Source: a virus. Taken from it: 64,000 bases of DNA. Position 1 is the first letter of the stretch. The number at the start of each line of letters is the position of its first letter. The stretch lies in IMG/VR virus record IMGVR_UViG_3300001097_000004, positions 10,664 through 74,663 of that record, one strand, 5' to 3'. The position numbers were made by a program, and so were the translations under genes. This document shows, piece by piece, positions 16,227 through 60,339 of the stretch. The notes under the pieces were generated by a model. That model was given only the letters and a program-made list of their open reading frames with translations. It did no database searches and had not been told where the DNA came from.

Positions 16227-16841
16227 CTATTCGTCGGAATTGTTGTCTGACTCGGAGTCTTCCGTGTCAGGCTCAGCGGACTCGTACTGCTCTGCATCTG
16301 ATACTGTGACAAAATTCTTGTCGTACTGCTCGATAAAGGCTTGGGCCTTCTCGGGGTCGATAAAGATTGCTTCCATGTCTTGGTGAGTCTCATCAGTTGG
16401 GGAGAGGCCAACCCAGTCTCCATCGGTACGGACATAACGTCCGGAGTCGTTGGCGTAGACAAGTCCTACGATGTAAGCTGAGTCTCCCAGCGCGTAAGCC
16501 ACAAGGCTCTCGGGGTGATTAATTTTGTCTCCTTCTTTTGCAAGGCTTCGTAGGGCTTCTACTGGCAAGTCAGTTTTGAATGACGACAACCAGAGTCCGT
16601 CAGGCTCCCGAAAAAGGCGAACCCTGTAGGTGGTGTCTGCGGACTTAAACTCTAGTCTAGCAGTTTTTTGGTCTACTGTTATATCATGAGCCTTAAATGA
16701 CTCGTCTGGGCCGGTCACCGCACTGACGGTCACCGAGGTCTTCCCGACGAGCGTCACCTTCAAGGTTACTACAGGTTGGGCCCCTTCGGAGGTTAAGACC
16801 CCTAGTCCTGTGAACAGGGGGTACGTGTTAGCTTTTACCAT
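16227..16841 (-). CDS. Hypothetical head-region protein
   Basis: 204-aa ORF overlapping the end of the giant ORF, co-oriented. Confidence 0.75.
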   Translation of the reverse strand: MVKANTYPLFTGLGVLTSEGAQPVVTLKVTLVGKTSVTVSAVTGPDESFKAHDITVDQKTARLEFKSADTTYRVRLFREPDGLWLSSFKTDLPVEALRSLAKEGDKINHPESLVAYALGDSAYIVGLVYANDSGRYVRTDGDWVGLSPTDETHQDMEAIFIDPEKAQAFIEQYDKNFVTVSDAEQYESAEPDTEDSESDNNSDE

Positions 16842-19800
16842 AGTCCTGGCTCCTCGTCATCATCTTCTAGCAACTCGTTCGAGTCAATGACCTGTGGCCC
16901 CTTGTTTACAGAGTTGATAAGACCGTTTAGTCTGAACATAATAGTACCATACCAAGCGGTCTGATCCATGTCCACAAAGTCTGGGAACACTGCCTGCAGC
17001 TTGCCTTTGACCATCAGTAGCTCGGCAGAGGTCATGTTGCCCCTGCCTGCACGAAGGTCGGCTAAGAGCCGGTCCGTGTACGGCGACTGCCAGACATTTT
17101 TCTGGAATTCCGGCTCAAGAGATAGAAGTCCGTGATCGATAGGTACGTGCTTGCCTTCGGGGGTGATCATCATGTTTCCAAGGTTCTGGTCGCGGTCTGG
17201 GTTTCCAATGAGGAAGTCCAATAGACCAATCTTTGGCATGTTCTCATGTCCGGGTTCCCAGAAGCTCTTATCGATATCCTTGTACCACAAACTAATGCTG
17301 GCACCCTCGTCAGCATCGCGGTTGCCGGTCCGGGGGACACTGTAGTGCTGGGCTGCAGCCTTTCCGGGGATTGTTGTGCTAGCAACAGTCACACCATCGG
17401 GAAGCATAGACATGGTCACATCGTCAATGCCTACGGCACGCATGACACGGTTGGCGGCAAGTTCTGCCTGCCCCATACCAACCTTGCTGGCACCTCTGGC
17501 ACGCTTGACGAACAGCTTCTGGCCGTCCGCAGTCTTCACGAAGGCCCCAAGTTCGTGGAGTGCACCCTGCTCAGGCGCGGGACCATCGGGGGTGCTGCCT
17601 TCAAGAAGACTGGCGATCTGAGCAGCAGATTCGGATTTGATGTTCTCGTAGAAGTGTGGCTCATCAGCCACCAGGGTAGGCGAGTCATCGCCACCTCGGT
17701 GCCTACGACGAGCATTAGCCTCAACCTGTGCACGACTTGGGGTCGCTGCAAAGTAGGTCTCATTGGCCTTGGAAGGCACAATGACATTGAACTGCTGATC
17801 CTTGTCCGGAGAGTAGTCGAAGATTTCTCCTGTGTTCCGGAGAACCCCGTCAACAGAGATTGGAGCACCGTAGGGGTCTTCTGCGTCCAAGAGACGTACC
17901 CTTATGGTTCCATCATCCTTGCGGCCTAGAGTTTGGAGGTATCCAAGCCCACGCAGAGGAATGATATCCCCGACTTCCATGTCACGGACGAGCTTGTATC
18001 GACGTTCGAACTGGTCGGTACTACGACCGATCTTTTCAAGCTTGTTGACCTCAGCAATGTCCGGGAAAGATACAGCTTCCCCACCATAATCCACACCGCT
18101 ACGTAGGTCTGCAAGGTCCTGCTCGGAGCGACCCTCCACTAGGTTCAATGTTTCAGTAGAGATACCGAACTGAGCGAAGAGGGCAGCTAGCGGAGACTCA
18201 TTCTCTCTAGTCTGTGCCTCCTCTTCGATGTCAGAGATTGTCCTGATCATATCTTCAACGTCGGCCTGGGTGGCATCCAGATCACCCAACACACCTTGAG
18301 CCATGTCAAAGTCTGCACGAGTGAGACGCTTGTCGTCTAGTAGACGACGCAGAGTATCAATCTGGGCGTTAGTGGCCGGAGCCGCCGGGTCAATAACATC
18401 ATCGAACTCGGAGAGGTCCATGTCCTCGAATGCTGTGAGGGTTTCTGGTCCAAGGTCGCGCTCTTTGATTGTCTGGGAGCCATCCTCTCCGGCGCTGGCG
18501 GTCGTGACCTGAGTGCGGTCGTTGTCCTTACGCTGGATTCGGATTACAGTCTCGTACTGAACGTTGTTGCCTTTGTCTAGCGTGGTGATGTGGTCCCCGG
18601 GAGCTAGCTCAGAAGCTCTTGCAGACTTCGGCTCAGCGTTCTCAACACGAATGGCAGCATCACGGCTATCGGACGGAACGTTGGCCCCTTCAAATCCTTC
18701 GATTTCAGTCTTGCCCGTTGCAGGATTCAACTCAGCCTTAGCCTTCGTAGGTGCGGCCTTCTTCGGACGAGCAACAGTCTTGTCGCCAGTCTCCGGAACA
18801 CCGAATCCGTTAGCCTCCATGAGATCATGGTCGATCACACGGGTGGGCGGGAAGAACGGCTCAGACTCAGGAGCGTCCGGTCCACTGACCTTCTGCAGAC
18901 CGGAGCCTACGTGAGGAATCGAGCGTGACTCAGGGTTTCTAAGTCCGTTCTCGGTGTTCTTCTCGATGAAGGTGGAAAGCGTGGTGTCACCATAACCATA
19001 TCCGGCAGGGTTCAGAGCCTCATAGAGCAAGTGGTCAACCTGGCCACGATATACGCGTCCGTAGTTCGGGTTAGGCTCGGTCACAACTTTAGGCTTGCCT
19101 GTAGTCACGTTATAGACAAGGTTTCCGTCTTCATCCCGTAGAGGAATGTTGTTTCCATCTGCATCCTTAACCGGGCGAGTCTTGCTGTTGTCAGTCCAAT
19201 CAACCCAGTCTCCGGCGTGCAACTTTGTACCGTCGAAAGAGATGTGAGAAGGCTTATCGGCCTTACCGGGGTTGAGCTTGTAGTTAGCTTCTGCCTTCTG
19301 TCGGCGCTTAACTGCAGAGAAAACCTTCGCAATCATCTTGGGGTCGAGGCTGCTCTTGGCACCGATAGCCTTGAGAGCCTTGAGATTTGTTACCTCAGGG
19401 TTGTCCATGAGCATCTGAACAATGGCTCCGATAGCCTGTGAGTCAGCCTCGTGAACGGACTTCGGAAGGTCTGTCCCAGAAATCAGCTCATCAGCGGCGC
19501 TGTCCGGAAGGACCCCATCCGTGCCTAGATAGTCCTTCTTGACGTAACGCTGCTTCTTGAAGAACGCTTCGGGGTCTCCGATGCCGGACATGCCCTTCTT
19601 GATGTAGTTCAAGGACTTGAATACTGCCTTGGGGGAGTGCTGACCATTCTCACGCAGACGTGTAGCGGTCACCTCTCCAGTCTTGAGGTCCGTGGCAGTT
19701 ATGTAGGTGAAGAACTGATTGCTGCTGGTACGACGAATGGTCGTATCGTAGCGCTTTTCACCGAATTCACGGGACTGAACAATCATATCACCATTATCCT

Positions 19801-22800
19801 TACGGATGAAGTTCGGGTGAGCGAACTCCAGCTGATCAGAAACTGAGTCAGCATTGGTGTAGTTGTTCGGGTTGTCGTCCGCAGCCATAAGCCCGGGGTC
19901 GGTAGGCGTGAAATTCTCAGCCAAGTCCTCTGAAGGTCGAGGTGTGGTCTTGATGTCGGCACGGTCAGGTGCGCTGGAGACCTCCTGCATGATCTCTGCA
20001 GACTCAGCGGGGGTCACACCCTCGTTGATGCGATCCTTGATCTCCTGCTTGCGCTCTGGAGTAATATCCTTGGCCTCAATAAGAGTCTCAACGACCTTTT
20101 CACGGTTCCCAGAAGCTACATGCTCCTCGGATGTGAATGTAGGGGCCTCTGGTGCCTCGTCAGGTGCAGGAATAGTATCATCGGGGTCAGCGTCGCCTCC
20201 GGAGTCCAGAGTCTCGTACTTCTCGTAAATCTTGTCGAGCTGCTTCTGGAGAATCTTCTTACGAATCGGATTGGTCTCGTTCGACTTCTCGATCTCAAGA
20301 CGACCGGCTAGGTCCTCTAGCTCGTCCGTGGTGTCCGGCATTCCGTCACCGACAGGCTCATCCTCAAGGGCAGCATCGGGCTCCGGAGTCTCGTCCGGTG
20401 TCGGCTCAGGCTCTGGAGTATCACGAACGGCTCGGGCAGCATCGCGCTCACGGCGGTCCTTCTCCATACGCAAATCATCTTCGCGCTCAAGATCGGTGAT
20501 GGAACGATCCTCTTCAGGTGTGTCGGTGCGTAGATCAATTTCTGCGTCGATTTCCTCGACCGACATATCCCTCGGCTTGGTCTCTACAGGCTGATCGGCC
20601 TTGATTTGCTCACGGCGTTCAAGTTCCTTACGAACATCCGCCATTTCCTTGGGGGAAGAGTTGCCGTTGTTTAGGACATCGTTGGCGTGGTTATCGAGGT
20701 CACCGTCAGACATGGTCTCTAGCGGAACTTCAACTTCAGAGTCTCCTGGAGCGACAACTTCTGCCGCAGCAGGGGCCTCAGGAGCTTCGGGAGCCTCTTC
20801 AGCTTCTGGAAGTGTGGCTGTGTCGTAGTTTTCGGTGCCAGGAATACCTCGTGAAGGGGTGTCTGGGTTCTCGTCAGACTCGTCGGTATAGTCGAAAGCC
20901 CATGCAAGGGAGCCTGGATCAAGGGCTTCCTGAGCGCGGGTAACGGCCACGTAGGCTAGACGCATCTCTTCGGGCTCTGGCCACGTCATTTCAGACTCCC
21001 CGGTCCTCTCGTTGACCTCTTCCTGAGGCCCACGGAAGTCCGCAGCGATCTTGACTCGGTTCCACTCAAGACCCTTAGCCTTGTGCGCGGTGGAGACTAC
21101 AACATCAATCGGAGCTTCATCGCTGTTCTGCATCGCAGTGATGCCATCAGCCATGCTGTCTGGTCTGCCGGTCTTGTCCCACGACTTGCTGTCACGGTTC
21201 CACTTGAACCCCATGGCTCGGAACTTGTCCCCAATCGGGAACGTGTTTCCGGACACCTTGAAGGTTACGTCTCCGCCACCAGCATCCTCAACATCATACA
21301 TGGCGGGCTTCATGCCACCGAACTTGTTGGGCACGTCTACGAGCACACCGCGTGCGCCCGGAGTCCACTTGACGGCCTCTCCAGCACCGAAGCCAGCACC
21401 ATCGGTCTCTCGGATGCTACCTACGGCCTGTTTGATCTGGTCCATACCCATCGTGTTCACGATGTTGTACAGCATGGACACCTTTGCGGAGGCCTTGCCA
21501 TTGGCTACGTCATCAGCAACTTCGTCCCATGTGGTGTAGCCCTGGAGGTCTTCGTGGTTGACTCTACCGTTGCCGTAGCGCAGTGTGTTCACGCTTTGGA
21601 CAAGGTTCTGCATGTCCTGCTTGAACTTCTTGGAAGTACCGACAACGCGGCCCTTCTCTAGCTCTTCGAGGATTGAGGTCAGTGCCCCAGCATTAGAGCG
21701 TGTGAGAATTGCATCCGGGTCGTTCATGGAGCCGGGCTCCATAACTTCACCCTTCTTACCTCCACCAATAACCTTCAGTGGGGAGTTGAGGAGCGAGAGG
21801 AACCGGTTCCCGAACCCAGCAATCTCGGGGCCGAAGCGCCAGGACTGTGTGAGGGGAAGATCGATATCAACCTCTACGTTGTCCATCTCGTTGATGGCAC
21901 CGCGGAAGGAGTAGATGGATTGTCGAGCGTCACCAACGTAGACCTTCTGGATGGTCTGATCACGGACGATCTTGGCCATAACCGGGTTGATGTCCTGGGC
22001 CTCATCGAAGAAGATTACGTCAGCCTTACCTGGTCCCTTGCCCGGAACGGACTGGGAGAGGTCTGGCTTGCTGAGAGCCCAAATCTTGAAGTTGTGGTTG
22101 AAGGTGTATTTGATCTTGCCAGTCGGGCTGTTTAGGTCGGCCCAATACTCTTCGGCCCACGCCTGTGTCTGCTCGTTGTGTGGGATGTCGAGACCCTCAA
22201 AGTGCTGAGGACCGATCTTGTCGTCAGCGCTAATGGAGAACTTGTCAATGGCCTCGCCTAGGGCGCGTGCAATCTCCGTGTCCTCGTGCTCTTCGCCGTC
22301 AAGCTTGGTGTTCTTGATATCGAGGTGCTGTGCAACCTTCTTAGGCAGCACTAGGGACTCTCGGTCACTGAGCTTCTTGGTGAGCTTCTTGTCTACACCA
22401 GCATACGCCAGTGAGTCGCCGGTACGTGAGTGCACGTTCTTCGGCATACGACCATCGGCCTCAAGCTGAGTAGTCTTGTTGAAGGCCACGTAAAGGATGT
22501 CCTTGTCCGGATCATTCTTCTGCAGCTGGCGAGCCATTAGCTCAAGTGTGGAGGTCTTACCGGTTCCGGCCAGAGCCTGCACAATGGCAGACATTCCGGA
22601 CATGACGGCGCGGATAATGTTGCGCTGTTCCTTGGTCGGCATGAACTTCTCGTCAGCGTAGTCCTCATCGGAGTCCTGGTAGGGAATTTCCGTCTGGGCT
22701 GCATCTCGGAGCTTCTGGCCTTCCTGGCTCTGCTGAAGAATCTCTTCGCTACGGGTCAACCCGCTACGCTCAGATGAAGCAATGTAATCATCCAGCGGGG

Positions 22801-25800
22801 TGTCCTCCGGAATATCAATGCTGTCTGCAGTACCAGAAGAGGACGGGATGCGATCTACATCTAGACGGTCGTCCGTGTCTCCACTAGGCTCGGCAATTTC
22901 ATAGATGGCAGAAGAGTTTGTAGGCTCGCCGTCGTTGTTGAGGTTGAGGGGCTTGTTGGTGTCCTGCAGTCCTGGGAAGTCCTGTCGGGACTTGCGCTCT
23001 GCAAGCGAGCCCTCAGAGTTGGGTCCAGCATCTACCTCATCTAGAGTAATGCTTTCGCCATTGACTACATCGAAGATAGCGTCTTGGTTTCGTTCCTTGC
23101 CGATACGGACAGCATCATCTCGGTCATCAACCTTCTCGGACACGTCCAGAGCGTACTCGTTGCCGTCTTCGGTCTTCCATACGCCAAGGTTGTTGCCGGG
23201 CTTGTCCAGCTCTTCACGGTTCTCGTCCACGTAGTTATTGACAGTGTCTAGGCCCTTCTCAGGGTTGTCGATATCATCCAGAGGGACACGGAACTCGTGA
23301 TCCTCAAGGGAAACAATGAACCCATCCTCGGGTCGTTCGCCAGTGTTGACATCAACAGTGATGCCACCATCCGTACGGATGTCGTCTAGCGTGGCCTCAT
23401 CGACCATGAATACACCCACACGACGTGCGTCAGGAACGTCAGTCTCGGTGCCAATAAGGTCAGCGCCCCATAGACTCTCGTCTACAGGTCCAGCCTTCTG
23501 ATCAGCGAACGGACGGTCGGGGATTGGCAGACTGCCGTTGTCTCCGAAGTAATTAGTCCAAGTGTTCTGACCACGAGTCTCAAGCCACAGGGCCTGCCAA
23601 GAATCTTTGGGCAAAGTGCGACGGTGGGTTCTCCATGCCTCCCATTCGCCCTTGGGGCCGAAGCCTACAGTGGCTCCACGCTCCTTGGACTTGACGTGAC
23701 CGAAGTAGTCGTGAACGGCACGGAAGAGGTCATTGACAACAAAGTCCTTGCGATCAATCGTGACGACATTCTTCATTGGGTGGCCCACAGGTAGAGTGGC
23801 TCCACCGTCTGCGAACACCTTCAACGTACCGTTGTTTTCCACGTCAGCAAGCATCTCTGCAGAGCTACCATACGGGTCGTCCTGGCCGAACTGAATTTCA
23901 ACTCCGTCAGCCTTCATCTCAAGGTACTGTGCAGCAATCGCATCGGTAAGCTTGAAGTAGGACTCGCGCACTTCGGGGGTTAGGTCCATATCTGGCAGGG
24001 CATCATAGGCCTCTGCCGCAGTGGGTCCCGAGGCATCCCAGGGGGTGACCTCTGGTTCGTCGGGGGCAGCGTCCATATCAGCGAGACGCTTCTCTTCAAT
24101 ACGTAGGTCAGCGTCGAGGTCATCAGCATACTCGCCGTTAGCAGTCTTGAGACGTTCCTTAAGGTCTGCAATACGTGACTCAACCTTGGCACGTTCGGGG
24201 CTTGAGGCCTCAGGAGCGTCCGGCTCCGGCAGAGTATCATCAACTACGGGGCGGTCGGGAAGAGTGTTGATGGCCTTGAGGGTCTTCTCCATCTCGGCCC
24301 AGCGGTCCTTCTGGTCCTGGCTGCGGAGGTCTACCTGCCAGCTGTCGTTGAAGTCCTCTAGACGTGCGGCCCAGGAGGCATCCTTTTGAAGTTCATCCAG
24401 AACCTCCTGCTTGGAGGCCCCATTCTCGATCATCTCAGCGATGTGGCCGTCAGAGTCGAAGTCCTTGATGAGGTCGGCGGCGAGGTCCGGCTTGGGCGCA
24501 GCGAGCCGCTCCTTCTCAGCGGCTCGTTCGGCCTTGACGGTGTCCGTATAGTCAACGTGCTCCTGGACTGAGTTCCACGAGTACGCGGTACCACCAGGCA
24601 TCTGGCCGTCCTTGTGCTTGATAACAAAGCGCGGAGAGAGCTGACCGTTTCCCCCCTTGATGGAGAGAAGTGTGGCTTCGATGTTACCGTCTGGAGAAGT
24701 CCAAACTTCACTGCCGTTAGCGTCAGTGCTCTTGGTCCAACCCTCTAGAGGGGTATTACCAAAGCGGTCAAGGTTGGTGTCTTCAGGAATGTCCAGCTCT
24801 GCGGGGTCGGCGGGGGTGTCCGCTTCTGGCGCAGGGGTAGTACGTGCATCACTGTCGGATACAATCAACTTCCCACGATTGACAACTATGTAATAGTTGG
24901 AGCCATCATCCTGCTTGGCGACAATCGCGTCATACCCCAACTCGGAGGCCAAAGCACCAATACCCTGCCCCATCTGAGCAGACATGGCACGGTCTATCTG
25001 AATGTCTCTAGACTTCCAGTTTACCTCGGGTCGTTCATCCAGTGGGATACTTTCAAACGCCCGGAAAGTCTCCATACGAGCGAGCGCTAAAGTTCTAAGC
25101 TCGTCCATGTCAATGATTTTTGCATCCCTAGGGAGTGCGGCAGCTACGGCATAATCATTACCGTCCATATCGGAGTAGTCACTAACAACCCCTTCATAGT
25201 TATCTCCAAAGTAGATTCCGAGACCGAAATCTCCAGGCTTGAATGGGGCAATCTCGGAGGTTCGTAGAGCGTCTGCACGCCCCTCGGGAGTGTCAGGAGT
25301 TCCCGTCTCGCCGTCCTCGTCGTCATCATCGGATGACCCGTTCCAGCTCAGCCCCTCCATGCGATAGATCGGTGTGGCACCGGCATCAACGGCATCTTTT
25401 AGCTCTTCGGCAGTAACAACCTGGGGCAGACCGCTACCATTCTCTGCGACAACAAAGTCAGAACTGAGGTTAAGACCGTACTGGTAGTTATACTTCCCGA
25501 ACATGTCTGGACCGAGATCAGTAGGAGACTCCTCACTAGTGTATGGAGAAGACTCTTTTGACGTGCCGTCAGGCGCGTCTAGTGCATCGAGCTTGGCCTG
25601 CGTGTCCGCAATGTCCTGCTCGATCTGATCTAGCTGCTCGGGCTTGGCGTTGTCTAGTCTTTTGTTATTCCGAGCGAGGGTACGTTCGAGGGCTCTTCGG
25701 TCGGAGTCGTCTCCGCTGTCGGCTGGGGCTGCTGTGGGCTTGTCTCCTCCGGAGTCTCCACTATCCCCTCCTCGGGAGTCGGGCTCGGCTGGGCTCCCTG

Positions 25801-27508
25801 TGTCAGCTTCTGGCTGATCTGGGTCGTCCACTGCCTTAGCTGTTCCGGGGTCATCTGTCCCAGATTTTCCGGAATCGGAATCACTGTCTTTGGCATCGGG
25901 TGCCTCCTTCTTTTCGGTTTCCTTAGGATCGCCAGCCAGCTCCTTCTTGAGGTCGTCAACAGACTTCTCCAGGTCAGCAAGACGCTTGTCCTCTTTGGCT
26001 TTGTCGTTCTTCTGCTGCTCCTTGAGACCGGCTCGGGCCGTGTCGGCTTCTTCCATGTCTCCGGAGTCGGCGTTCTCACCCTTGTCGTCTAGGTTCTTCT
26101 GGGCTCTTGTGTCAGCGTCAATGATCTGCTCACGCGCTAGAGCGTCAGCCTCTTCACGCGCCTTCTCGTAGGCATCCCAACCGGCACGCTCTTCTTCGGT
26201 CATGTCGTCTACGGGCTCGATCTTCTTCGAGGGTGCGTCCGTCTCCGGAGCCTCCCCCTCAGGCGCATCAGCCTCGGCTTCAGGAGCCTCATCTAGGGCT
26301 GCAATCTTCTCTTCAGTCTCAACGATCTGCTTCTCAAGACGTTCGAACTGCTTGCCATCTGCATTGGCTTGCTGATCGTTCAGCTTGGCTAGGCGGGTCT
26401 CCAGAGCTTCGCGCTCTTCAGGCTTGACCTGACTGGCAGGCTCGCCAGCCACACGTCCCTTGTCGTTGGGGATGGTCTCTCCGGTGGAGAGGTCGTGGAA
26501 CTCGGGGGCACCGATGCCACCAGCCTGGGCCTTAGCGTTGTCTAGGGTGTCAGCGGAGGTGTAAATCTCAACAGAACCGGAATCCGAGTCTACAACGAGG
26601 CGCTTTCCGGAGCCCTCCTTGAGGTAGTCACTATTCGCTTCAACGAACTGGGCCAGACCTTCAGGAGAGGTGTCCTGGCCGGACTTGCCGGTAGGAATAA
26701 GGAAGCCCTCACGTGCAACACCGAAGGTGTCAAGGTCGAGTTCACCCTCACCAAGGTCACTCTCGGACTGCGCGTCAGCAATGTCCTGAGGCTGAACGTC
26801 AGCGCCCTCGGGCAGACGTTCCTTGGTATCAAGAGTGTCCTCCTCAGGACCGAAAGAGTCTAGCTCGTTGACCTGCTTGAGCGCGAAGCCCACGCCACGC
26901 CAGTTCTTGACGGTGCCCGGGTTGTTGTTGACATTTTCAACGCCCCATGTCTCTGTCGGGGAGCCGTCCACTTCGGTGGTGCTGTGGTAGAGGTTATAGT
27001 CGTTGTCCTCTGTGGACCACATCTCCGCACCGCCCCTAGCGGGCTTGTGGTTCCAGCCGATGGGTGAGTCTGAGAACGGAATCTTGTCAACGTCAGGAAT
27101 CTTTTCGGAGAGACGTTCCTTGACGAGGGTGCCGTTAGCGTCTAGACCGAGCTTGATACCCCGGTCGGAGAGTTGCTTGGCGGAAAGCTGGCCAACGAAC
27201 TCCTGCACGTTGGAACTCTTTACATCATAGAACCCGGTCCTAAGTCCGGAAGGGTCCTCGGAGACGTAGACCTGAGCGGTCTGCGGATCACGAGCACCTA
27301 CGAATGATCCGAGCACGGAACGAACGGTTCCATCACTGAAGCGAACCTTGAACTTGAGCAACCCACGACCCATGAAAATGAATCGTCCGTAACGGTCACG
27401 CAGCTGGAGCTTGGCTCGTGCTGAACGTGCGGCCTTGCTATTTCCACCAGCGGCAACAAGTGCGGCCAGTTCCTCATCAAAGTCAGGAAACTCAGGAAAA
27501 TCGAGCAC
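16835..27508 (-). CDS. Giant polyvalent protein (ART-like, HDxxGH, SF1 helicase and HipA/PI3K-like kinase domains)
   Basis: 3557 aa. Helicase motifs: ALAGTGKTST, FDEAQD, VGDARQSIYSFRGA, LTQSWRFG, STAHKAKGLEW, RLAYVAVTRA. Kinase motifs: LFVK, AELAA, DFLIGNPDR..GN, IDHG. ART-like motifs: YR.EG, GLGIYF, GYDAI. Confidence 0.85.
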   Translation of the reverse strand: MLDFPEFPDFDEELAALVAAGGNSKAARSARAKLQLRDRYGRFIFMGRGLLKFKVRFSDGTVRSVLGSFVGARDPQTAQVYVSEDPSGLRTGFYDVKSSNVQEFVGQLSAKQLSDRGIKLGLDANGTLVKERLSEKIPDVDKIPFSDSPIGWNHKPARGGAEMWSTEDNDYNLYHSTTEVDGSPTETWGVENVNNNPGTVKNWRGVGFALKQVNELDSFGPEEDTLDTKERLPEGADVQPQDIADAQSESDLGEGELDLDTFGVAREGFLIPTGKSGQDTSPEGLAQFVEANSDYLKEGSGKRLVVDSDSGSVEIYTSADTLDNAKAQAGGIGAPEFHDLSTGETIPNDKGRVAGEPASQVKPEEREALETRLAKLNDQQANADGKQFERLEKQIVETEEKIAALDEAPEAEADAPEGEAPETDAPSKKIEPVDDMTEEERAGWDAYEKAREEADALAREQIIDADTRAQKNLDDKGENADSGDMEEADTARAGLKEQQKNDKAKEDKRLADLEKSVDDLKKELAGDPKETEKKEAPDAKDSDSDSGKSGTDDPGTAKAVDDPDQPEADTGSPAEPDSRGGDSGDSGGDKPTAAPADSGDDSDRRALERTLARNNKRLDNAKPEQLDQIEQDIADTQAKLDALDAPDGTSKESSPYTSEESPTDLGPDMFGKYNYQYGLNLSSDFVVAENGSGLPQVVTAEELKDAVDAGATPIYRMEGLSWNGSSDDDDEDGETGTPDTPEGRADALRTSEIAPFKPGDFGLGIYFGDNYEGVVSDYSDMDGNDYAVAAALPRDAKIIDMDELRTLALARMETFRAFESIPLDERPEVNWKSRDIQIDRAMSAQMGQGIGALASELGYDAIVAKQDDGSNYYIVVNRGKLIVSDSDARTTPAPEADTPADPAELDIPEDTNLDRFGNTPLEGWTKSTDANGSEVWTSPDGNIEATLLSIKGGNGQLSPRFVIKHKDGQMPGGTAYSWNSVQEHVDYTDTVKAERAAEKERLAAPKPDLAADLIKDFDSDGHIAEMIENGASKQEVLDELQKDASWAARLEDFNDSWQVDLRSQDQKDRWAEMEKTLKAINTLPDRPVVDDTLPEPDAPEASSPERAKVESRIADLKERLKTANGEYADDLDADLRIEEKRLADMDAAPDEPEVTPWDASGPTAAEAYDALPDMDLTPEVRESYFKLTDAIAAQYLEMKADGVEIQFGQDDPYGSSAEMLADVENNGTLKVFADGGATLPVGHPMKNVVTIDRKDFVVNDLFRAVHDYFGHVKSKERGATVGFGPKGEWEAWRTHRRTLPKDSWQALWLETRGQNTWTNYFGDNGSLPIPDRPFADQKAGPVDESLWGADLIGTETDVPDARRVGVFMVDEATLDDIRTDGGITVDVNTGERPEDGFIVSLEDHEFRVPLDDIDNPEKGLDTVNNYVDENREELDKPGNNLGVWKTEDGNEYALDVSEKVDDRDDAVRIGKERNQDAIFDVVNGESITLDEVDAGPNSEGSLAERKSRQDFPGLQDTNKPLNLNNDGEPTNSSAIYEIAEPSGDTDDRLDVDRIPSSSGTADSIDIPEDTPLDDYIASSERSGLTRSEEILQQSQEGQKLRDAAQTEIPYQDSDEDYADEKFMPTKEQRNIIRAVMSGMSAIVQALAGTGKTSTLELMARQLQKNDPDKDILYVAFNKTTQLEADGRMPKNVHSRTGDSLAYAGVDKKLTKKLSDRESLVLPKKVAQHLDIKNTKLDGEEHEDTEIARALGEAIDKFSISADDKIGPQHFEGLDIPHNEQTQAWAEEYWADLNSPTGKIKYTFNHNFKIWALSKPDLSQSVPGKGPGKADVIFFDEAQDINPVMAKIVRDQTIQKVYVGDARQSIYSFRGAINEMDNVEVDIDLPLTQSWRFGPEIAGFGNRFLSLLNSPLKVIGGGKKGEVMEPGSMNDPDAILTRSNAGALTSILEELEKGRVVGTSKKFKQDMQNLVQSVNTLRYGNGRVNHEDLQGYTTWDEVADDVANGKASAKVSMLYNIVNTMGMDQIKQAVGSIRETDGAGFGAGEAVKWTPGARGVLVDVPNKFGGMKPAMYDVEDAGGGDVTFKVSGNTFPIGDKFRAMGFKWNRDSKSWDKTGRPDSMADGITAMQNSDEAPIDVVVSTAHKAKGLEWNRVKIAADFRGPQEEVNERTGESEMTWPEPEEMRLAYVAVTRAQEALDPGSLAWAFDYTDESDENPDTPSRGIPGTENYDTATLPEAEEAPEAPEAPAAAEVVAPGDSEVEVPLETMSDGDLDNHANDVLNNGNSSPKEMADVRKELERREQIKADQPVETKPRDMSVEEIDAEIDLRTDTPEEDRSITDLEREDDLRMEKDRRERDAARAVRDTPEPEPTPDETPEPDAALEDEPVGDGMPDTTDELEDLAGRLEIEKSNETNPIRKKILQKQLDKIYEKYETLDSGGDADPDDTIPAPDEAPEAPTFTSEEHVASGNREKVVETLIEAKDITPERKQEIKDRINEGVTPAESAEIMQEVSSAPDRADIKTTPRPSEDLAENFTPTDPGLMAADDNPNNYTNADSVSDQLEFAHPNFIRKDNGDMIVQSREFGEKRYDTTIRRTSSNQFFTYITATDLKTGEVTATRLRENGQHSPKAVFKSLNYIKKGMSGIGDPEAFFKKQRYVKKDYLGTDGVLPDSAADELISGTDLPKSVHEADSQAIGAIVQMLMDNPEVTNLKALKAIGAKSSLDPKMIAKVFSAVKRRQKAEANYKLNPGKADKPSHISFDGTKLHAGDWVDWTDNSKTRPVKDADGNNIPLRDEDGNLVYNVTTGKPKVVTEPNPNYGRVYRGQVDHLLYEALNPAGYGYGDTTLSTFIEKNTENGLRNPESRSIPHVGSGLQKVSGPDAPESEPFFPPTRVIDHDLMEANGFGVPETGDKTVARPKKAAPTKAKAELNPATGKTEIEGFEGANVPSDSRDAAIRVENAEPKSARASELAPGDHITTLDKGNNVQYETVIRIQRKDNDRTQVTTASAGEDGSQTIKERDLGPETLTAFEDMDLSEFDDVIDPAAPATNAQIDTLRRLLDDKRLTRADFDMAQGVLGDLDATQADVEDMIRTISDIEEEAQTRENESPLAALFAQFGISTETLNLVEGRSEQDLADLRSGVDYGGEAVSFPDIAEVNKLEKIGRSTDQFERRYKLVRDMEVGDIIPLRGLGYLQTLGRKDDGTIRVRLLDAEDPYGAPISVDGVLRNTGEIFDYSPDKDQQFNVIVPSKANETYFAATPSRAQVEANARRRHRGGDDSPTLVADEPHFYENIKSESAAQIASLLEGSTPDGPAPEQGALHELGAFVKTADGQKLFVKRARGASKVGMGQAELAANRVMRAVGIDDVTMSMLPDGVTVASTTIPGKAAAQHYSVPRTGNRDADEGASISLWYKDIDKSFWEPGHENMPKIGLLDFLIGNPDRDQNLGNMMITPEGKHVPIDHGLLSLEPEFQKNVWQSPYTDRLLADLRAGRGNMTSAELLMVKGKLQAVFPDFVDMDQTAWYGTIMFRLNGLINSVNKGPQVIDSNELLEDDDEEPGLW

Positions 27509-40986: not shown

Positions 40987-41082
40987 GCTGTCCTTCTTTC
41001 TGGTTGATGCTCTAAGCCTACACCATACCCCAGACAAACACAATACCCCCGGCAAACTATCTACCGGGGGCGTGTCTCGCGT

Positions 41083-41334: not shown

Positions 41335-41553
41335 GTGAGTTTGTCCTTTCTGGTTGATAGTTCCTATCCTACACTGTATCCGGCAGGATGTCAAATCCGA
41401 ATATGAGACTCCGAGTGTGGTCGCGCTTGTCGTCACGCAAGTCCGGGAGGCCGGGCGCAAGGGACTTGGAATTTCTGTTTGGGCCGACAAAAACGCCCCA
41501 ATAGACTAGAGTGTCTACCGGGGCGTTTCGCCTAGCACCTTTCTATTAGATTA

Positions 41554-41739
41554 TCAACTCAGAGCGTAAATCTTTTCAGCCAGTTCAGGGTAGCCGTAGC
41601 CGTCTAGCGTGTCCGCGAACGTGTCTTTGTCCATGCCATAGCTTTCAATACCGGAAGTTATTGCTGACGCGTCATACGGGTCAATGGCAAAATCTTGTAC
41701 CCAGCCCTTGAGCCTTTTGATGATCGCTGTTCTGGTCAT
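41554..41739 (-). CDS. Hypothetical protein
   Basis: 61 aa; CAACCAGAAAGG leader. Confidence 0.75.
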   Translation of the reverse strand: MTRTAIIKRLKGWVQDFAIDPYDASAITSGIESYGMDKDTFADTLDGYGYPELAEKIYALS

Positions 41740-41964
41740 GATGTCCTGCCTTTCTGGTTGATAGTATCAACGATACACTATCCCCGGCGATAGTGCAAGG
41801 GGCAGTTTAGAGCTTGTGTGCCTCGTAGAGAGCTTGACACTACGCCCGGCAATTGGTACCCCGGAATGAGCCACGCGCCCCGTAGAGCGCATCCTGTCGC
41901 GTGCATGCGTATAGGGCACAGAAAGCGAGGCATCCCGTAGGATGCCCCGCGATCTTGATATGCC

Positions 41965-44792: not shown

Positions 44793-44970
44793 AATCTAAT
44801 ACTAAAGCATGCCACCCGCAATGTCAAATCTATTTTGCTATTGACTTCTCCCGCAACCTGTGCTAAAATCCCGCGCACGCGTTTCGGTAACGCGCAGAAA
44901 TTTCCAAGTCCCTCCCGGCAAACAGAAACGCCCCGGACAATTTGCTATCCGGGGCGATCTGTGCTAGGGG

Positions 44971-45186
44971 CTAGGGGGTACGCCCAGAAATCTTGATTGC
45001 GAGCAACACACTGGCAACAGAGATGTTTGCGTCCGCAAGGTGCTCCTTCCAAAGTCCGCCCCAAAGGTTGGTGGCGATCTTCTCGGCACGCGCATCCTGC
45101 TCGGCAGTTACACGATCAGCTTCTGCGATATGTGCAAGCGTTTCCGGTGTCATGGACTTGTCCCACCGGTTCTTGTATTCTTTCAT
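44971..45186 (-). CDS. Hypothetical protein
   Basis: Own promoter and AGGA RBS. Confidence 0.75.
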   Translation of the reverse strand: MKEYKNRWDKSMTPETLAHIAEADRVTAEQDARAEKIATNLWGGLWKEHLADANISVASVLLAIKISGRTP

Positions 45187-45247
45187 GCTGTCCTGCCTCT
45201 CTGATTGATTAGTTCTAATCTACACCATATCCGGGCGTATGTCAAGT

Positions 45248-45460
45248 CTAGTCTTCTCCGCCCGGCTCACGCGTGACACCCGCGTATCCTTGCAGTGTCA
45301 TATCCGCGTCACACTCGTTGCAGATAAGCGTTCCGCAGTCCACGATATCCGTGAGTGGCTGGTCGGCAAACACTTCGCTGTTGCTGGCGTGTTCTTCCTC
45401 GTTCCCGCACACGTAGTACAGGTTTATTTTGTCGGTCGGTACGAGCTTCTGGTTGGTCAT
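45248..45460 (-). CDS. Small Zn-binding-like protein
   Basis: GTLICNECD; leaderless promoter. Confidence 0.75.
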   Translation of the reverse strand: MTNQKLVPTDKINLYYVCGNEEEHASNSEVFADQPLTDIVDCGTLICNECDADMTLQGYAGVTREPGGED

Positions 45461-45469
45461 GATTCTAGT

Positions 45470-45664
45470 CTACACCTTATCTGTATTTTTGTCAAGCAGA
45501 TGCACAATCTCGCGTGCCTCTGCGAGAGTTTCGTTGGATGCGTCCCAGCCGTCCGCACGTCCTTCTGGAGTCTGTATCCAGTCCAGCCAGTCTAGAGATT
45601 CTTGAATCGGGATATTCGGGCTGTCGAAAGTCAAGTACGAGATCAGGGGGTTTGTGGTTGTCAT
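45470..45664 (-). CDS. Hypothetical protein
   Basis: Leaderless promoter. Confidence 0.75.
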   Translation of the reverse strand: MTTTNPLISYLTFDSPNIPIQESLDWLDWIQTPEGRADGWDASNETLAEAREIVHLLDKNTDKV

Positions 45665-45763
45665 AAGTAAAGACTACACCTTATCCGCATGCGTGTCAAG
45701 TCCCGGCGAAACAGAAACACTCCCCGACGACTGACCAGAATCGCGGGGAGTGTTAGTCTGTAG

Positions 45764-46132
45764 TTATTTGCGCGGCAGCTTGTCCAACCATCCCGAACCG
45801 ATGGAGATTAGCGCAGACTGGCACGTCGCGTCAAACTCATCCCAGTATTCCTCTAGGGCGATCTCTGAGAACCAGACTCCATTGCTGTAGGGGTCAACCG
45901 AGTTCGGCAAGAACTCTAGCTCAGAATCGGAGTGCACGCCTAGGGCATCGATGCAACCGCCCTCGGCATCCACGGTATCGGTGTCCGGCATGTCGTAGTC
46001 CGGGTGCGTGTATACGGTGGTCTCCTGTAGAGTCACCGAGTCTTTCTTGATGTAGTAGGATGCGAACCCGATCTCCTTGCCACCGTGTTGCGTGATCTTG
46101 ATATCGTAGAAAGGTGTAAGTATTCTGGTCAT
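45764..46132 (-). CDS. Acidic hypothetical protein
   Basis: Leaderless promoter; terminator 45716-45754. Confidence 0.8.
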   Translation of the reverse strand: MTRILTPFYDIKITQHGGKEIGFASYYIKKDSVTLQETTVYTHPDYDMPDTDTVDAEGGCIDALGVHSDSELEFLPNSVDPYSNGVWFSEIALEEYWDEFDATCQSALISIGSGWLDKLPRK

Positions 46133-46141
46133 GATTCTATC

Positions 46142-46324
46142 CTAACGTACGGCGCTCATCGTGTCAAGCTCGGCCTGTAGAATGTACCCCGAACTCAGGG
46201 CTCCATCCGGGGACATATCGTTGACCCATGTCTCAGGGCAGCGCGTGCAGCTCCACACGATCATTCCGGAATTGATTGCGAACGGCAGCGAGCCTTGGTC
46301 GTGTCGGCAGGCATTAAATGGCAA
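46142..46324 (-). CDS. Small Cys-containing protein
   Basis: AGGAG RBS; C.H...CTRC. Confidence 0.65.
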   Translation of the reverse strand: MPFNACRHDQGSLPFAINSGMIVWSCTRCPETWVNDMSPDGALSSGYILQAELDTMSAVR

Positions 46325-46379
46325 GTGATCTCCTAGGTTGTGGTTGGTTGTTGCTTCTAGTGTAGCAGGTTAGGCGTTG

Positions 46380-46769
46380 TTAAAACTCTTCAGGCTCAGG
46401 GTACATAAGCGCAGCCGTACGTGGTACGATCTTCATCGAAAACCCAAACGGCACGTGTCCTTCACCAAGATAGAACACGTCTTTACTGCTGGTTGTGGCC
46501 TTGTCCACGCCCCAAGAGATACGCTCCCACGGCGACATGGTGAGTTCTCCACCCCCGAATAGACTCGTCACGAACCCGTACCCGGGAACCTGCCACGCCT
46601 TACGCAAGTACGGGCCTCCCACTTCTTCAGTACCGGGGTCGGCATTCGCCCACGTGTCTACAATGAGCTTGGCATCCTTGGATGAGATAACGACGGCACT
46701 CTTGGAGTGTACCGTGGCAACGACGAGCACTCTACTTTCGAGTATTTCTACTTCTATCATTTCTTGCAT
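46380..46769 (-). CDS. Hypothetical protein
   Basis: Perfect TTGACA-N17-TATAAT-N6-ATG. Confidence 0.8.
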   Translation of the reverse strand: MQEMIEVEILESRVLVVATVHSKSAVVISSKDAKLIVDTWANADPGTEEVGGPYLRKAWQVPGYGFVTSLFGGGELTMSPWERISWGVDKATTSSKDVFYLGEGHVPFGFSMKIVPRTAALMYPEPEEF

Positions 46770-46810
46770 GATTATATTATACCCTTCTGGTCGGTGGTTG
46801 TCAAATCGGG

Positions 46811-46927
46811 TCAGACTTCGACCGCAGTCACAGTCAGGCGCGTGTTGGTCGGCAGCATGTTTAGCATGGCTTGCAGAGCCTCCGTAAGTTCGGGGGCTTC
46901 CCCATCTATTTCAATGTTTATCATCAT
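46811..46927 (-). CDS. Small hypothetical protein (38 aa)
   Basis: TTGACA-N18-TAGGAT-N6-ATG; MMINIEIDGEAPELTEAL... Confidence 0.55.
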   Translation of the reverse strand: MMINIEIDGEAPELTEALQAMLNMLPTNTRLTVTAVEV

Positions 46928-47108
46928 GCTTCTATCCTATACCCCCCGGCATCCGAATGTCAAGTGTCAAACCGTACAGGGATGTATCAGATTCAGTATC
47001 TTTCCTGTATATTTTGACACCCGGGACTTGGAATTTCCACCCGCACACAAAAAGGTGAGCCGAACTCACACCATCTTTAGTGTGAGTTCGGCTCGTCTCC
47101 CTTTCTCT

Positions 47109-47453
47109 CTATCGTGCGTAGAGTTGACCTCCGTGGCGTTGTGCCTCGGCAGTGGCCTTATCGAATCCTGCTGGCGTGCTTAGGTCGTAGCGTGAGGCTA
47201 CAGAGCCGTCAGAGTAGTACGCGGGACTCTTCCATCCCGCAGCCTTGATGAGCTTGCCTGTGGCACGCTCCACGAACGCGTAGACGAATGTCTGCGTCCC
47301 GTTGGTGTAGGCGATCTTGTCGAACCTGCGCCCCGGCTTGACCGAGAACAGGTAGGGTACGCGGTATTTCGCGTACTCTCCGGTATCGAGTGCATCCTCG
47401 TGCGCGAACTCGACTTCAATTCGCTTGGCGAATCGTGTTGCAAAGTTGTCCAT
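47109..47453 (-). CDS. Conserved phage hypothetical protein
   Basis: GRRFDKI...AFVE..TG.LIKAAGWKSPA...RY motif; own promoter. Confidence 0.8.
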   Translation of the reverse strand: MDNFATRFAKRIEVEFAHEDALDTGEYAKYRVPYLFSVKPGRRFDKIAYTNGTQTFVYAFVERATGKLIKAAGWKSPAYYSDGSVASRYDLSTPAGFDKATAEAQRHGGQLYAR

Positions 47454-47517
47454 GATGAGCCTTTCTGGTTGGTGGCTGATGTATTTAGTCTACACCAACC
47501 ACCAACCGGTGTCAAGT

Positions 47518-47667
47518 CTAGTAGTCGTCCATGTCATACTGCTCGTCATAGTCCGGCGCGTTCATCCGGCGAACCACGTCCGCCTTGATGGACTCGTCAG
47601 AGCCGTAGAGCTGTCCTTCGCAGTCGTTCATCTCGTGACCACACGCGGGCCAGTCCTCACATGCCAT
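47518..47667 (-). CDS. Small acidic Cys-containing protein
   Basis: MACEDWPACGH..C...YDEQYDMDDY; GAAAGG RBS; own promoter. Confidence 0.75.
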   Translation of the reverse strand: MACEDWPACGHEMNDCEGQLYGSDESIKADVVRRMNAPDYDEQYDMDDY

Positions 47668-47810
47668 TGGGTACCTTTCTGGTCGATTGGTTGTTAGTAC
47701 AAGACTACACCCGTACAAGCTCCCTGTCAAGTCCCGGCGCAAACTAATTTCCAAGTCCCTCCCGCAAACGAAAACGGGGGTACGTTTCCGCGCCCCCGTA
47801 TCCGTACGTG

Positions 47811-48224
47811 TCAGTTCTCCACGAACGTCATGACTCCTTCCAGCGTACCTTTCGGTGTCCACTTCCAGAATGAGCCATCCTCCCCGTGCCAGATGATGTA
47901 CGCGTCAGGGTTGACAAACGGCGCGATAGCGTCTAGGAACTGGGATTCGTCCCCAATCTTGTTGTCGTAGTCGGTGATCGCCAGATCGCCCTCTCCGGTA
48001 AGGTCGGTGTAGAAACCAAGCTCCGTGAGAATCTGGTCGGCAGTACTGCATTTCTTGTCGTAGTCGGCCTCCATCCACGAGAACCATTTCTCGCCAGTGG
48101 ATGAACCGCCACCCTTCTGGGCTTTCGGGTCATGGTTGAGAGCACACATGGCCTTGAACGCAGCGTCAAGGTGCTCTTTCAAGATATAAGTATCGCTCTC
48201 GTTGATGGTTACATAGAATCCCAT
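47811..48224 (-). CDS. Hypothetical protein
   Basis: MGFYV..., FL.AIAPFV..YI.W.GEDG.FW; GAAAGGG RBS. Confidence 0.8.
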   Translation of the reverse strand: MGFYVTINESDTYILKEHLDAAFKAMCALNHDPKAQKGGGSSTGEKWFSWMEADYDKKCSTADQILTELGFYTDLTGEGDLAITDYDNKIGDESQFLDAIAPFVNPDAYIIWHGEDGSFWKWTPKGTLEGVMTFVEN

Positions 48225-48295
48225 GGGGTTCCCTTTCTGGTTGGTGGTTGGTTGATATCTAAATAGCCTATACCATACCCGCATGTCTGTCAAGT

Positions 48296-48658
48296 CTAGC
48301 TCCCATACGCGTCGTCGGGGTGGGCGAGGATGTACTTGAACGAGCTGAGTGCAGCTCCCCACGTCTCTCCACGATCTTGATCTCTCTGTGCTTCGCGTGC
48401 TGCGAGGCTCAAACTGCTCGGCGCGTCATAGTAGAGGGTGAACAAGTCGAAAATGTTTATGTTGACCTCCGGCATCGGGATACCAAGGTTCCAAAGCGCA
48501 TGCCCCAACAGACAGGACGGCTCGCCATCAATCTCGTACTGGCACATATCGTACGGGTACGACACGTAGACAAAACCCTCACCCATGAGAGTTACGGCAT
48601 CCTCCAATGCCTTAGTGAATTCCTCGGTTGTGATCTTGATCTTCTTGGTTGTGGTCAT
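48296..48658 (-). CDS. Hypothetical protein, paralog of the domains in 57149-57925
   Basis: C.Y...G.PSCLLG.AL..LG, AQ..QD.G.TWG.AL. Confidence 0.8.
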   Translation of the reverse strand: MTTTKKIKITTEEFTKALEDAVTLMGEGFVYVSYPYDMCQYEIDGEPSCLLGHALWNLGIPMPEVNINIFDLFTLYYDAPSSLSLAAREAQRDQDRGETWGAALSSFKYILAHPDDAYGS

Positions 48659-48786
48659 ATACCTATTCTAAGCCACTCGACACCCAATGTCAAGTCTGGA
48701 ACCGGCACAAAATTCCAAGTCCCTCGGCACGCAAGAACCCCCGCACAGTGACCAGAATGTGCGGGGGCGGTCTCTTGAGTTTTGGG

Positions 48787-49149
48787 TTAGCGGTTCCTGT
48801 AGAACTCCGAAATGTTGATGGGCGGTTCGCCTACGTCCTCGGGGGAGACACCATCCGGTAAGGCCTCCAGGCCCATTTCATCGGCAGCAGTCTCCACGGC
48901 ATTCTGAACGTAAGTCCAGTCGGTTTCGGTGCAGTCTTCGAGCATGCCCCACGAATGAGTAACCTGTGCAGACTCGCGCAGTGCCTCGCGGTGCTCTGCG
49001 GGGTACCAGACAACATACTCGTCCAGATCGGCAGGCGACCAAATCTTGACTGGGATGTCGAACTCGCTGGCAATCCCGCGCAGTAGGTCATATGGTGATA
49101 TACCTTCCGGCACCCTGATCGGCGTGCCGTTTATGTGAATGATGTTCAT
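48787..49149 (-). CDS. Acidic hypothetical protein
   Basis: GAAGGAG RBS; own promoter. Confidence 0.8.
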   Translation of the reverse strand: MNIIHINGTPIRVPEGISPYDLLRGIASEFDIPVKIWSPADLDEYVVWYPAEHREALRESAQVTHSWGMLEDCTETDWTYVQNAVETAADEMGLEALPDGVSPEDVGEPPINISEFYRNR

Positions 49150-49212
49150 GTGGCTCCTTCGTGGTTGTTGTTGTTCTAATCCTACGCGAACAAGTCGCTC
49201 GTGTCAAGTCCT

Positions 49213-49500
49213 CTACAAAACAACTTTCCCGCATTCGCAGGTCGTTTCTGCGGGGGCGTACGCGTCCCGCATATCTTGTCTGTTCGATTCTGAGAGCTTA
49301 GTGAAAAGCTCGTTCCGCATTCCGTAGAACGTCCTGAGTCCGGGGCGCGAGACGATGTCTCCGTGCAGGGTCATACCCGCGCACCGTGTGTCAGCACAGA
49401 CCAGTCGGTCATACCCGAGGAATACTTCTCCGGGGTATGCAGCCTCATAGGCCGCGTCCCGCGCTCGGTACTCGTCAATGGTCTTCTCCGTGGTTGTCAT
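49213..49500 (-). CDS. Hypothetical protein
   Basis: Leaderless promoter; C....CAG, CECG. Confidence 0.8.
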   Translation of the reverse strand: MTTTEKTIDEYRARDAAYEAAYPGEVFLGYDRLVCADTRCAGMTLHGDIVSRPGLRTFYGMRNELFTKLSESNRQDMRDAYAPAETTCECGKVVL

Positions 49501-49784: not shown

Positions 49785-50195
49785 CTACCACACCCAGTCA
49801 TGTGTTGAGTCCTCGTCAGTCCACGGCTTGGTGCTCATGACGTACCCAACGCGATTGACGCTGTGCCAGCCGGTGGCGATGTATAGAATGCCGTCACAGT
49901 CAAGCACAGTCCACAGGTGGGACTCGTCCTTTGGGCGGTAGAAGAACTGGGGAGACACAGTGTCAGTGGTGTCTGGCCACGGCTCGGCAACAAAATGGTC
50001 GTCCCAGTCTGGAAGACTTGCACGCTCCCGCGCACCTTCCACGGCAGCCTCAATCAGGTTGGCAACGTCATGGGCGAGTCCATCTAAAATCTGGTCATAC
50101 CCACCCTCGTCAAAGTCTGGGCCTGTAAAGAGAGGGGCCAGTAGGTCGTTGAGTTCGTAGCGGTCAATTTCAAACTTCGGTGTGGTTGTGGTCAT
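49785..50195 (-). CDS. Hypothetical protein
   Basis: HLWTVLDCDG.LYI..GWH.VNR.GY motif; leaderless promoter. Confidence 0.8.
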   Translation of the reverse strand: MTTTTPKFEIDRYELNDLLAPLFTGPDFDEGGYDQILDGLAHDVANLIEAAVEGARERASLPDWDDHFVAEPWPDTTDTVSPQFFYRPKDESHLWTVLDCDGILYIATGWHSVNRVGYVMSTKPWTDEDSTHDWVW

Positions 50196-60242: not shown

Positions 60243-60339
60243 CAAGAAGGCCCTGAGGAGTTCCCAACCACAAGAACTCAACTCAGGGCCTACCCATTAG
60301 GAGATCAAGGGGAGCCTATCAGGTCTCCCCCGTCATGCA
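60243..60339 (-). ncRNA. Candidate small RNA with two hairpins
   Basis: Promoter TTGCAG-N17-TAGAGT (60346-60374); only a 5-codon ORF; hairpins 60309-60330 and 60248-60291 followed by a U-rich tail. Confidence 0.5.

Follow-up and report, generated by a model that had tools for sequence, protein, structure and literature searches.

We analysed a stretch of viral DNA (the window; 64,000 nucleotides (nt), bases 10664-74663 of the 74,663-bp IMG/VR contig IMGVR_UViG_3300001097_000004) in which two stem-loops of the intrinsic-terminator type, referred to as H1 and H2, display the same 10-nt apical motif, AUUCUGGUCA, and in which this motif is exactly complementary to the start of gene 45764-46132, the very gene whose transcript H1 is predicted to terminate. 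The complement covers nt 2-11 of a predicted leaderless mRNA, both partners are predicted to be accessible and the computed energy of pairing is favourable. We tentatively read this arrangement as a 5'-3' RNA pairing of the icaR, hbs and hok kind that would mask the start of the gene 45764-46132 message. The common loop and its complement had been noticed in an earlier reading of the letters (the original prediction), the observation of which is confirmed by our analysis and the interpretation of which is partly supported.

Two terminator-type hairpins with a common loop

Both hairpins lie in the early region of the phage, a stretch of small genes on the minus strand at ~34.4-63.3 kb (34400-63350), and both were found where they had been predicted, with strong minus-strand folds (Table 1). 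The RNA fold of H1 has an energy of -30.3 kcal/mol (z -4.66 versus shuffled controls) and that of H2 an energy of -27.4 kcal/mol (z -3.49). H1 begins 9 nt past the stop codon of gene 45764-46132, with the -35 box of the next promoter 17 nt further on; its outer ACAGA/UCUGU extension spans 45711-45761, its tail is UUUCUGUUUCG and its U-tract, UUUCUGUUU, resembles those of the neighbouring terminators. H2 begins 18 nt past the stop codon of gene 48787-49149 and closes a multi-promoter block that runs from ~51.0 to 48.8 kb, and downstream of it come the usual GGGACTTGGAATTT box and then a promoter. Both are G+C-rich stem-loops that directly follow a stop codon on the transcribed strand, and they are 3' hairpins of the intrinsic-terminator type belonging to early phage messages.

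The loops of H1 and H2 measure 6-10 nt, compared with 3-6 nt in the other 15 terminators. In H2 the motif is held in a 10-nt loop, UUCUGGUCAC, with nine of its ten bases unpaired, and in H1 the minimum-energy fold forms the hexaloop CUGGUC, closed by three weak extra pairs (A-U, U-G and U-A), so that the loop proposed to be the same on both hairpins is identical as a 10-nt apical motif. The stems had been described as different and unrelated; their inner and outer parts do differ, but they have a CCCCG/CGGGG core in common, which is also frequent in other terminators of the region, and they are not unrelated. In its flanks H1 resembles the terminator at 44914-44968 and not H2, and its loop is nevertheless that of H2. 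The loop contains a YUNR (CUGG) U-turn motif, which is typical of fast antisense loops and which we count as weak evidence. Rfam covariance models gave no match at E<=1 on either strand of 34000-64000. On the plus strand an extended -10-like element, TGTTAGTCT, overlaps the right arm of H1 (45751-45759) and could start an RNA antisense to gene 45764-46132; such an element is present in H1 only, with no counterpart in H2, and a plus-strand promoter common to both hairpins was discarded for that reason.

Predicted pairing of the loop with the start of the message

The loop had been proposed to complement the start codon region of the gene that the first hairpin terminates, and the match extends over 10 of 10 nt, beyond chance. 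When the complete 433-nt message was folded, its initial 19 nt came out unpaired, and 0.28 kcal/mol suffices to open nt 2-11. Opening of the motif costs 0.2-1.4 kcal/mol in H2, whereas in H1 it costs 4.5 kcal/mol for all 10 nt and 0.8 kcal/mol for CUGGUCA. The duplex between the loop and nt 2-11 was computed at -14.9 to -15.4 kcal/mol, which leaves a net of about -10 to -13 kcal/mol with loop strain ignored. Two features of 5'-3' pairing of the icaR/hbs/hok type are found here, namely a 3' untranslated motif that complements the initiation region of its own transcript and, in the predictions, accessible partners with a favourable net energy. In addition, codons 3 and 4 of gene 45764-46132 are minor codons (AGA, 13% of Arg; AUA, 8-13% of Ile), which fits a constraint on the nucleotides and not on the residues.

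Computed loop duplexes over all targets range from -15.4 to -8.3 kcal/mol. Besides the 10 bp with gene 45764-46132, possible pairing amounts to 9 bp with gene 41554-41739, 7-8 bp with the ACCAGAA leaders, where it overlaps the Shine-Dalgarno (SD) sequence, and 6 bp with the seven leaderless starts that read AUGACCA. Another element of the original prediction, the 9-nt match at gene 41554-41739, is present (TGACCAGAAC); its duplex with the H2 loop has an energy of -13.6 kcal/mol, and this gene has an additional ACCAGAAAGG leader 22 nt upstream. For the ACCAGAA leaders the duplexes range from -9.4 to -13.4 kcal/mol.

The 7-mers most enriched in the 5' windows are ATGACCA, CAACCAC, ACAACCA and ACCAGAA, and the target 10-mer, U-G-ACCA-GAA-U, covers ATGACCA (minus its A) and ACCAGAA, overlapping at ACCA. 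Each of the 10 sense-strand copies of ACCAGAA in the early region occupies a leader, a start or, in one case, a promoter spacer, when leaders behind non-canonical promoters and this spacer are counted by inspection; within the strict 5' windows the counts are 6 of 10 for ACCAGAA and 8 of 12 for ATGACCA. The notion of a 'tagged gene class' is overstated, since ACCAGAA(AGG) is a C/A-rich leader plus the SD sequence and AUGACCA is a common Met-Thr leaderless start.

Copies of the motif and their location

Written on the plus strand the motif is TGACCAGAAT, and the whole contig holds three exact copies of it, two on the plus strand in the two loops and one on the minus strand that overlaps the ATG of gene 45764-46132 (Table 1). 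The flanks of the three copies are unrelated and the common word is exactly 10 nt. The H1 loop and the start of gene 45764-46132 make up an inverted repeat of 10 nt on either side of this gene, with a total span of 400 bp. In number the copies are unremarkable, as by our own arithmetic ~250 ten-mers are expected three times in such a contig, and when compared with ten-mers sampled across the window, the matches with at most one mismatch (n=13) stand only at the 96.6th percentile. It is the location of the copies that is beyond chance. Among 29,991 early sense-strand ten-mers, eight (a rate of 2.7e-4) perfectly complement the 17-nt 5' windows of the 41 predicted transcripts, and two of these eight are the apices of H1 and H2. 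When the 17 terminators were compared for their longest apical complement to any 5' end, H1 and H2 reached 10 nt, the hairpin at 60244-60295 reached 9 nt and the others at most 7 nt.

The hairpin at 60244-60295 (minus strand) is also of the terminator type, with an energy of -30 kcal/mol and a U-rich tail. Its apical UUGUGGUUGG complements CAACCACAA-type 5' regions over 9 nt, which correspond to the other two top 5' 7-mers. The complement to CCAACCACAA-type 5' ends is mostly stem-paired in the minimum-energy fold, with only UGGU looped.

Proposed mechanism and alternative explanations

In the mechanism that we propose, the exposed apex would act as an 'anti-start' sequence. On the monocistronic leaderless mRNA, of ~420-433 nt, the H1 loop would fold back onto nt 2-11 and close the molecule 5' to 3'. 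Ribosomes recognise a leaderless mRNA via its free 5' AUG, and pairing should therefore block re-initiation on the finished transcript; closure may additionally shield both ends from exonucleases, and output would be limited to a burst during synthesis. The upstream block, with its abundant 3' ends, would supply the H2 loop in trans, where it could act on this start as well as on gene 41554-41739 (9 bp) and, weakly, on the AUGACCA starts (6 bp) and the ACCAGAA leaders (7-8 bp). We infer both the pairing inside the cell and the direction of its effect, be it repression or stabilisation. For this message, a start masked by RNA pairing is the reading that we prefer, although tentatively, because it is the only one that covers the identity of the loops, the complement and its site on H1's own transcript. 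The fuller version, in which the terminator loop is a built-in anti-start element that confines translation to the time of synthesis and the 3' end of a neighbouring operon silences in trans, is more doubtful.

Several observations weigh against pairing. In its ground state H1 has three of the ten motif bases paired, and a 10-nt loop cannot make a full 10-bp helix without strain, which the energy model ignores; perhaps six to eight pairs would form first. The U-tract of H2, UUCUUGCGUG, is poor, with four U in 10 nt, below the threshold of five T per 10 nt that we set for terminators, and the ends of the early RNAs at H1 and H2 are themselves predicted. With two hairpins and one perfect target there is hardly a 'system'. 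The suggested pairing with ACCAGAA leaders is real as a set of 7-nt matches, but it is weak evidence: the anti-motifs TTCTGGT, TGGTCA and their kin show no depletion in the remaining early sense strand, so that 6-7 nt of complementarity probably has no effect except where a loop displays it.

Comparative support is also absent, as no relative closer than ~54% protein identity was present in the collections searched. A related-locus search with gene 45764-46132, the DUF7178 gene and the portal found none among viral contigs and none among metagenome contigs, megablast of 45000-49500 against GenBank phages gave no match, tblastn with the hairpin-adjacent genes gave no hits or only ~35% identity, and the best relative of the neighbouring ATPase has 54% protein identity. 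The product of gene 45764-46132 belongs to no Pfam family and has no homologue besides itself among 5.8 billion proteins, none in GenBank phages and no usable ESM Atlas hit; that of gene 48787-49149 likewise has no Pfam family and no phage homologue. A scan of viral contigs for TGACCAGAAT-N1-2-GCGGGG returned 14 chance hits, none of them in a hairpin, and the pattern CCCCG-N2-8-TGACCAGAAT-N1-6-CGGGG returned 84 hits in metagenome contigs, which is about chance level; these were mostly in coding DNA and none was related by tblastn. A scan for the leaderless promoter-start pattern found one unrelated contig of 39% GC. Microbacterium phage Big4 and Actinomycetia phage DSL-LC01 have the same promoter/terminator architecture, with mostly small loops and no shared start-mirroring loops, and such loops are no visible trait of the wider phage group. 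Two terminators of Big4 (6321-6347 and 15386-15420) have a common loop, GGGTTTGAC, because it holds the -35 box of the next promoter, terminator and promoter overlapping; the same explanation was rejected for H1 and H2, where spacing and hexamers do not fit.

The absence of such loops in relatives is what would be expected if H1 and H2 were plain terminators without any loop function, which arose as a duplicated cassette or by gene conversion and match the start by a coincidence aided by biased 5' composition. Like the other terminators, both are embedded in a repeated cassette made up of a hairpin with a U-rich tail, a GCCGGGA(GG)GACTTGGAAWTT box and a promoter, the CCCCG/CGGGG core is common to both, three copies of a 10-mer and a near-match count at the 96.6th percentile are not rare, and 7-8 starts contain UGACCA, which makes up six of the ten target bases. 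However, neutral drift following a duplication should change the loops first and faster than the stems, and the reverse is observed, with a loop that is kept while the stems differ. Plain duplication also sits poorly with flanks of H1 that are like those of terminator 44914-44968 next to a loop like that of H2, and with a 5'-window complement that occurs at a rate of 2.7e-4 and falls on H1's own transcript, whereas 14 other terminators reach at most 7 nt. On balance we consider coincidence unlikely. A constant loop on varying stems is also the classic signature of a protein-recognised hairpin, and the U-A-closed hexaloop U[CUGGUC]A, available to both hairpins, could be the site of a phage or host RNA-binding protein such as an antiterminator, a processing nuclease or a stabilising factor, with the start complementarity being incidental. 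Modulated read-through would be useful in a region of ~17 terminators and ~41 promoters. Such a protein would leave the exact complement at nt 2-11 of H1's own transcript unexplained, and there are two sites only, no candidate RNA-binding protein was identified and Rfam gave no match; we regard this explanation as distinctly unlikely.

The word could, finally, function as double-stranded DNA, either as a stoperator-like operator or roadblock or as a recombination inverted repeat around gene 45764-46132. The three exact copies have sharp 10-bp edges, unrelated flanks and both orientations, one of them covers +2 to +11 at a promoter, where operators typically lie, and an inverted pair brackets the gene. 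The short asymmetric stoperator sites used by actinophages, as cited in one source (PMC3203893), provide a precedent. Stoperator-like sites would be expected in many copies, in one orientation and between genes, whereas here the three exact copies have both orientations, the copies with at most one mismatch lie mostly inside genes and 1-mismatch sites are not clearly enriched. A DNA site would also not explain why two copies occupy the 10-nt spacer between terminator arms, and their distance to the next transcription start site differs (about -72 versus -95). Inversion would leave only a 10-codon frame, no recombinase is linked and there is no MPME-type homology. Since homology is lacking and the inverted product would be meaningless, we discarded a mini-element, invertible or MPME-like, with the 10-bp inverted repeat as its borders. 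We hold a role as DNA to be very unlikely. Mimicry of 16S rRNA was rejected because only UUCU is in common with the 3' tail, and co-transcriptional antitermination by the 5' end was rejected because the time window is too short.

The case for RNA pairing rests on one genome, and the mechanism is plausible and specific. If true, it would be the first known 5'-3' closure of a leaderless mRNA and would add a phage example to the few proven bacterial 5'-3' mRNA pairings. Leaderless mRNAs lack the 5' untranslated region (UTR) on which riboswitches, small RNAs (sRNAs) and anti-SD elements normally act, and their post-transcriptional control in actinobacteria and their phages is poorly known; a terminator loop of this kind would provide minimal control at no extra sequence cost and, if real, would be a small, transferable element with which leaderless expression could be tuned in actinobacteria.

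Genomic setting and other features of the early region

The contig has a CheckV completeness of 42%, and the G+C content is 54%. Its head, portal, terminase and tape-measure genes place the phage as a large siphovirus of Actinobacteria, and its major capsid protein is 63% identical to those of DSL-LC01 and the Pumpernickel/Big4 group of Microbacterium phages. The sole public sequencing run that contains contig DNA is a hypersaline-lake metagenome, probably the source; no RNA run was listed as containing it, and among the contigs of the metagenome there was one identical contig and no variants. A 3557-aa open reading frame (16835-27508, minus strand) lies between the portal and head genes in the structural arm. 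It raised the idea of an N4-like hairpin promoter for a virion RNA polymerase, which was rejected in view of the siphovirus-type tail and head genes and of early promoters of the host type, TTGACA-N17-TAnnnT.

About 41 such host-type promoters (TTGACA-N17/18-TAnnnT) are found on the minus strand of the early region. In about two dozen of them the -10 box is followed by exactly 6 nt and then ATG, which predicts leaderless mRNAs, many of which open with AUGACC(A) and seven with AUGACCA. Leaderless mRNAs are common in actinobacteria (PMC4633059). The same promoter/leaderless layout is seen in Big4, a cultured relative. The remaining early genes have C/A-rich leaders terminating in ACCAGAAAGG. We take the AGAAAGG portion of this leader word to be the match to the 3' tail of actinobacterial 16S rRNA (the SD sequence), and no pairing with rRNA is possible for its ACC extension. 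About 17 strong hairpins with U-rich tails split the early region into short units, and most of these terminators are followed by a GCCGGGA(GG)GACTTGGAAWTT box and the next promoter. The box, GGGACTTGGAAWTT, stands 10-15 nt past most terminators; a shortened form, GGGACTTGACA, merges with the -35 box, for example after H1.

Three further features were observed in this region. The -10 box of promoter P47515, TAGACT, lies within a 17-bp hairpin (47467-47507, minus strand; -28 kcal/mol), in which the G/U-rich promoter spacer pairs with the CAUCAGCCACCAACC leader immediately ahead of ACCAGAAAGG. A plus-strand promoter match at 44841-44869 (TTGACT-N17-TAAAAT with TG) points into the terminator at 44929-44956 from the opposite side and could yield a short antisense RNA. 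Gene 49785-50195 contains an in-frame internal ATGACCAGATT (Met33; 50097-50099, minus strand), a 1-mismatch copy of the start motif that could be an alternative start or chance.

Table 1. Coordinates in the window of the hairpins, their predicted targets and associated features.
Feature	Position	Strand	Description	Basis
H1	45716-45754	-	3'-end stem-loop, intrinsic-terminator type	sequence and RNA fold
H1 apical motif	45732-45741	-	AUUCUGGUCA	sequence, fold
H2	48738-48768	-	3'-end stem-loop behind gene 48787-49149	sequence and RNA fold
H2 apical motif	48749-48758	-	AUUCUGGUCA	sequence, fold
Gene terminated by H1 (predicted)	45764-46132	-	122 aa, acidic	
Promoter of gene 45764-46132	46139-46167	-	TTGACA-N17-TAGGAT, exactly 6 nt, then ATG; predicted leaderless transcript	
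Perfect target	46122-46131	-	UGACCAGAAU; nt 2-11 of the predicted leaderless mRNA, AUG ACC AGA AUA	
Gene with transcript predicted to end at H2	48787-49149	-	120 aa	
Second-best target	41729-41738	-	UGACCAGAAC, 9/10; at the start codon of gene 41554-41739	
ACCAGAA(AGG) leader/SD copies	48235-48241, 47677-47683, 47463-47469, 46785-46791, 45447-45453 (codons 2-5), 41752-41758, 41348-41354, 40998-41004	-		
Box past terminators	44911, 47758, 48722, 42545; others	-	GGGACTTGGAAWTT, ahead of the next promoter	
Box past terminators	40455, 41462, 47024; others	+	GGGACTTGGAAWTT, ahead of the next promoter	

Comparison with known systems

The 3'UTR of the icaR mRNA of Staphylococcus aureus has a motif that base-pairs, in cis or in trans, with the SD region, which keeps ribosomes from loading and stimulates decay (PMC3868564). 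The phage arrangement resembles it in that a short 3' untranslated motif complements the translation-initiation region of the same mRNA. The icaR motif, UCCCCUG, lies in a 390-nt 3'UTR and masks an SD sequence in a long 5'UTR, whereas the phage motif lies inside a terminator loop and would target a leaderless 5' AUG. In the hok mRNA of plasmid R1 the fbi/tac fold-back uses the extreme 3' end, and processing removes this end and activates the mRNA. In the hbs mRNA of Bacillus subtilis a 14-bp duplex of the 5' and 3'UTRs shields an RNase Y site (PMC5737220). Long-range pairing of the two ends of a short mRNA, coupling stability and translation, is the likeness to both hok and hbs, although neither involves a terminator loop or a leaderless start. 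Proteins recognise identical loops on differing stems in lambda N/boxB and in phage coat-protein operators, but these hairpins do not serve as terminators, and, unlike that of H1, their loops lack complementarity to the 5' end of the RNA that carries them.

Anti-SD-like words located hundreds of nucleotides downstream can repress a gene via long-range folding (PMC12697547). Cluster K mycobacteriophages have Start-Associated Sequences (SAS), a 13-bp GGGATAGGAGCCC of unknown function (PMC3203893), and the leader word ACCAGAAAGG resembles them because its ACC extension cannot pair with rRNA: it is also a private, asymmetric word that contains the ribosome-binding site, goes beyond 16S pairing and is repeated ahead of many non-structural genes. 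No complementary loop was described for SAS, however, and protein binding was what the authors of that study preferred as the explanation of the inverted repeats that accompany it (PMC3203893). Actinobacteria are without Hfq and their sRNAs pair through exposed loops, as does 6C of Mycobacterium (PMC6486639). The likeness to 6C is that exposed hairpin loops would serve as chaperone-free seeds on mRNA targets in the same host phylum; 6C is free-standing and places C-rich loops on G-rich sites, whereas the phage loop is part of an mRNA 3' end and would present a G/U-rich sequence to a C/A-rich start.

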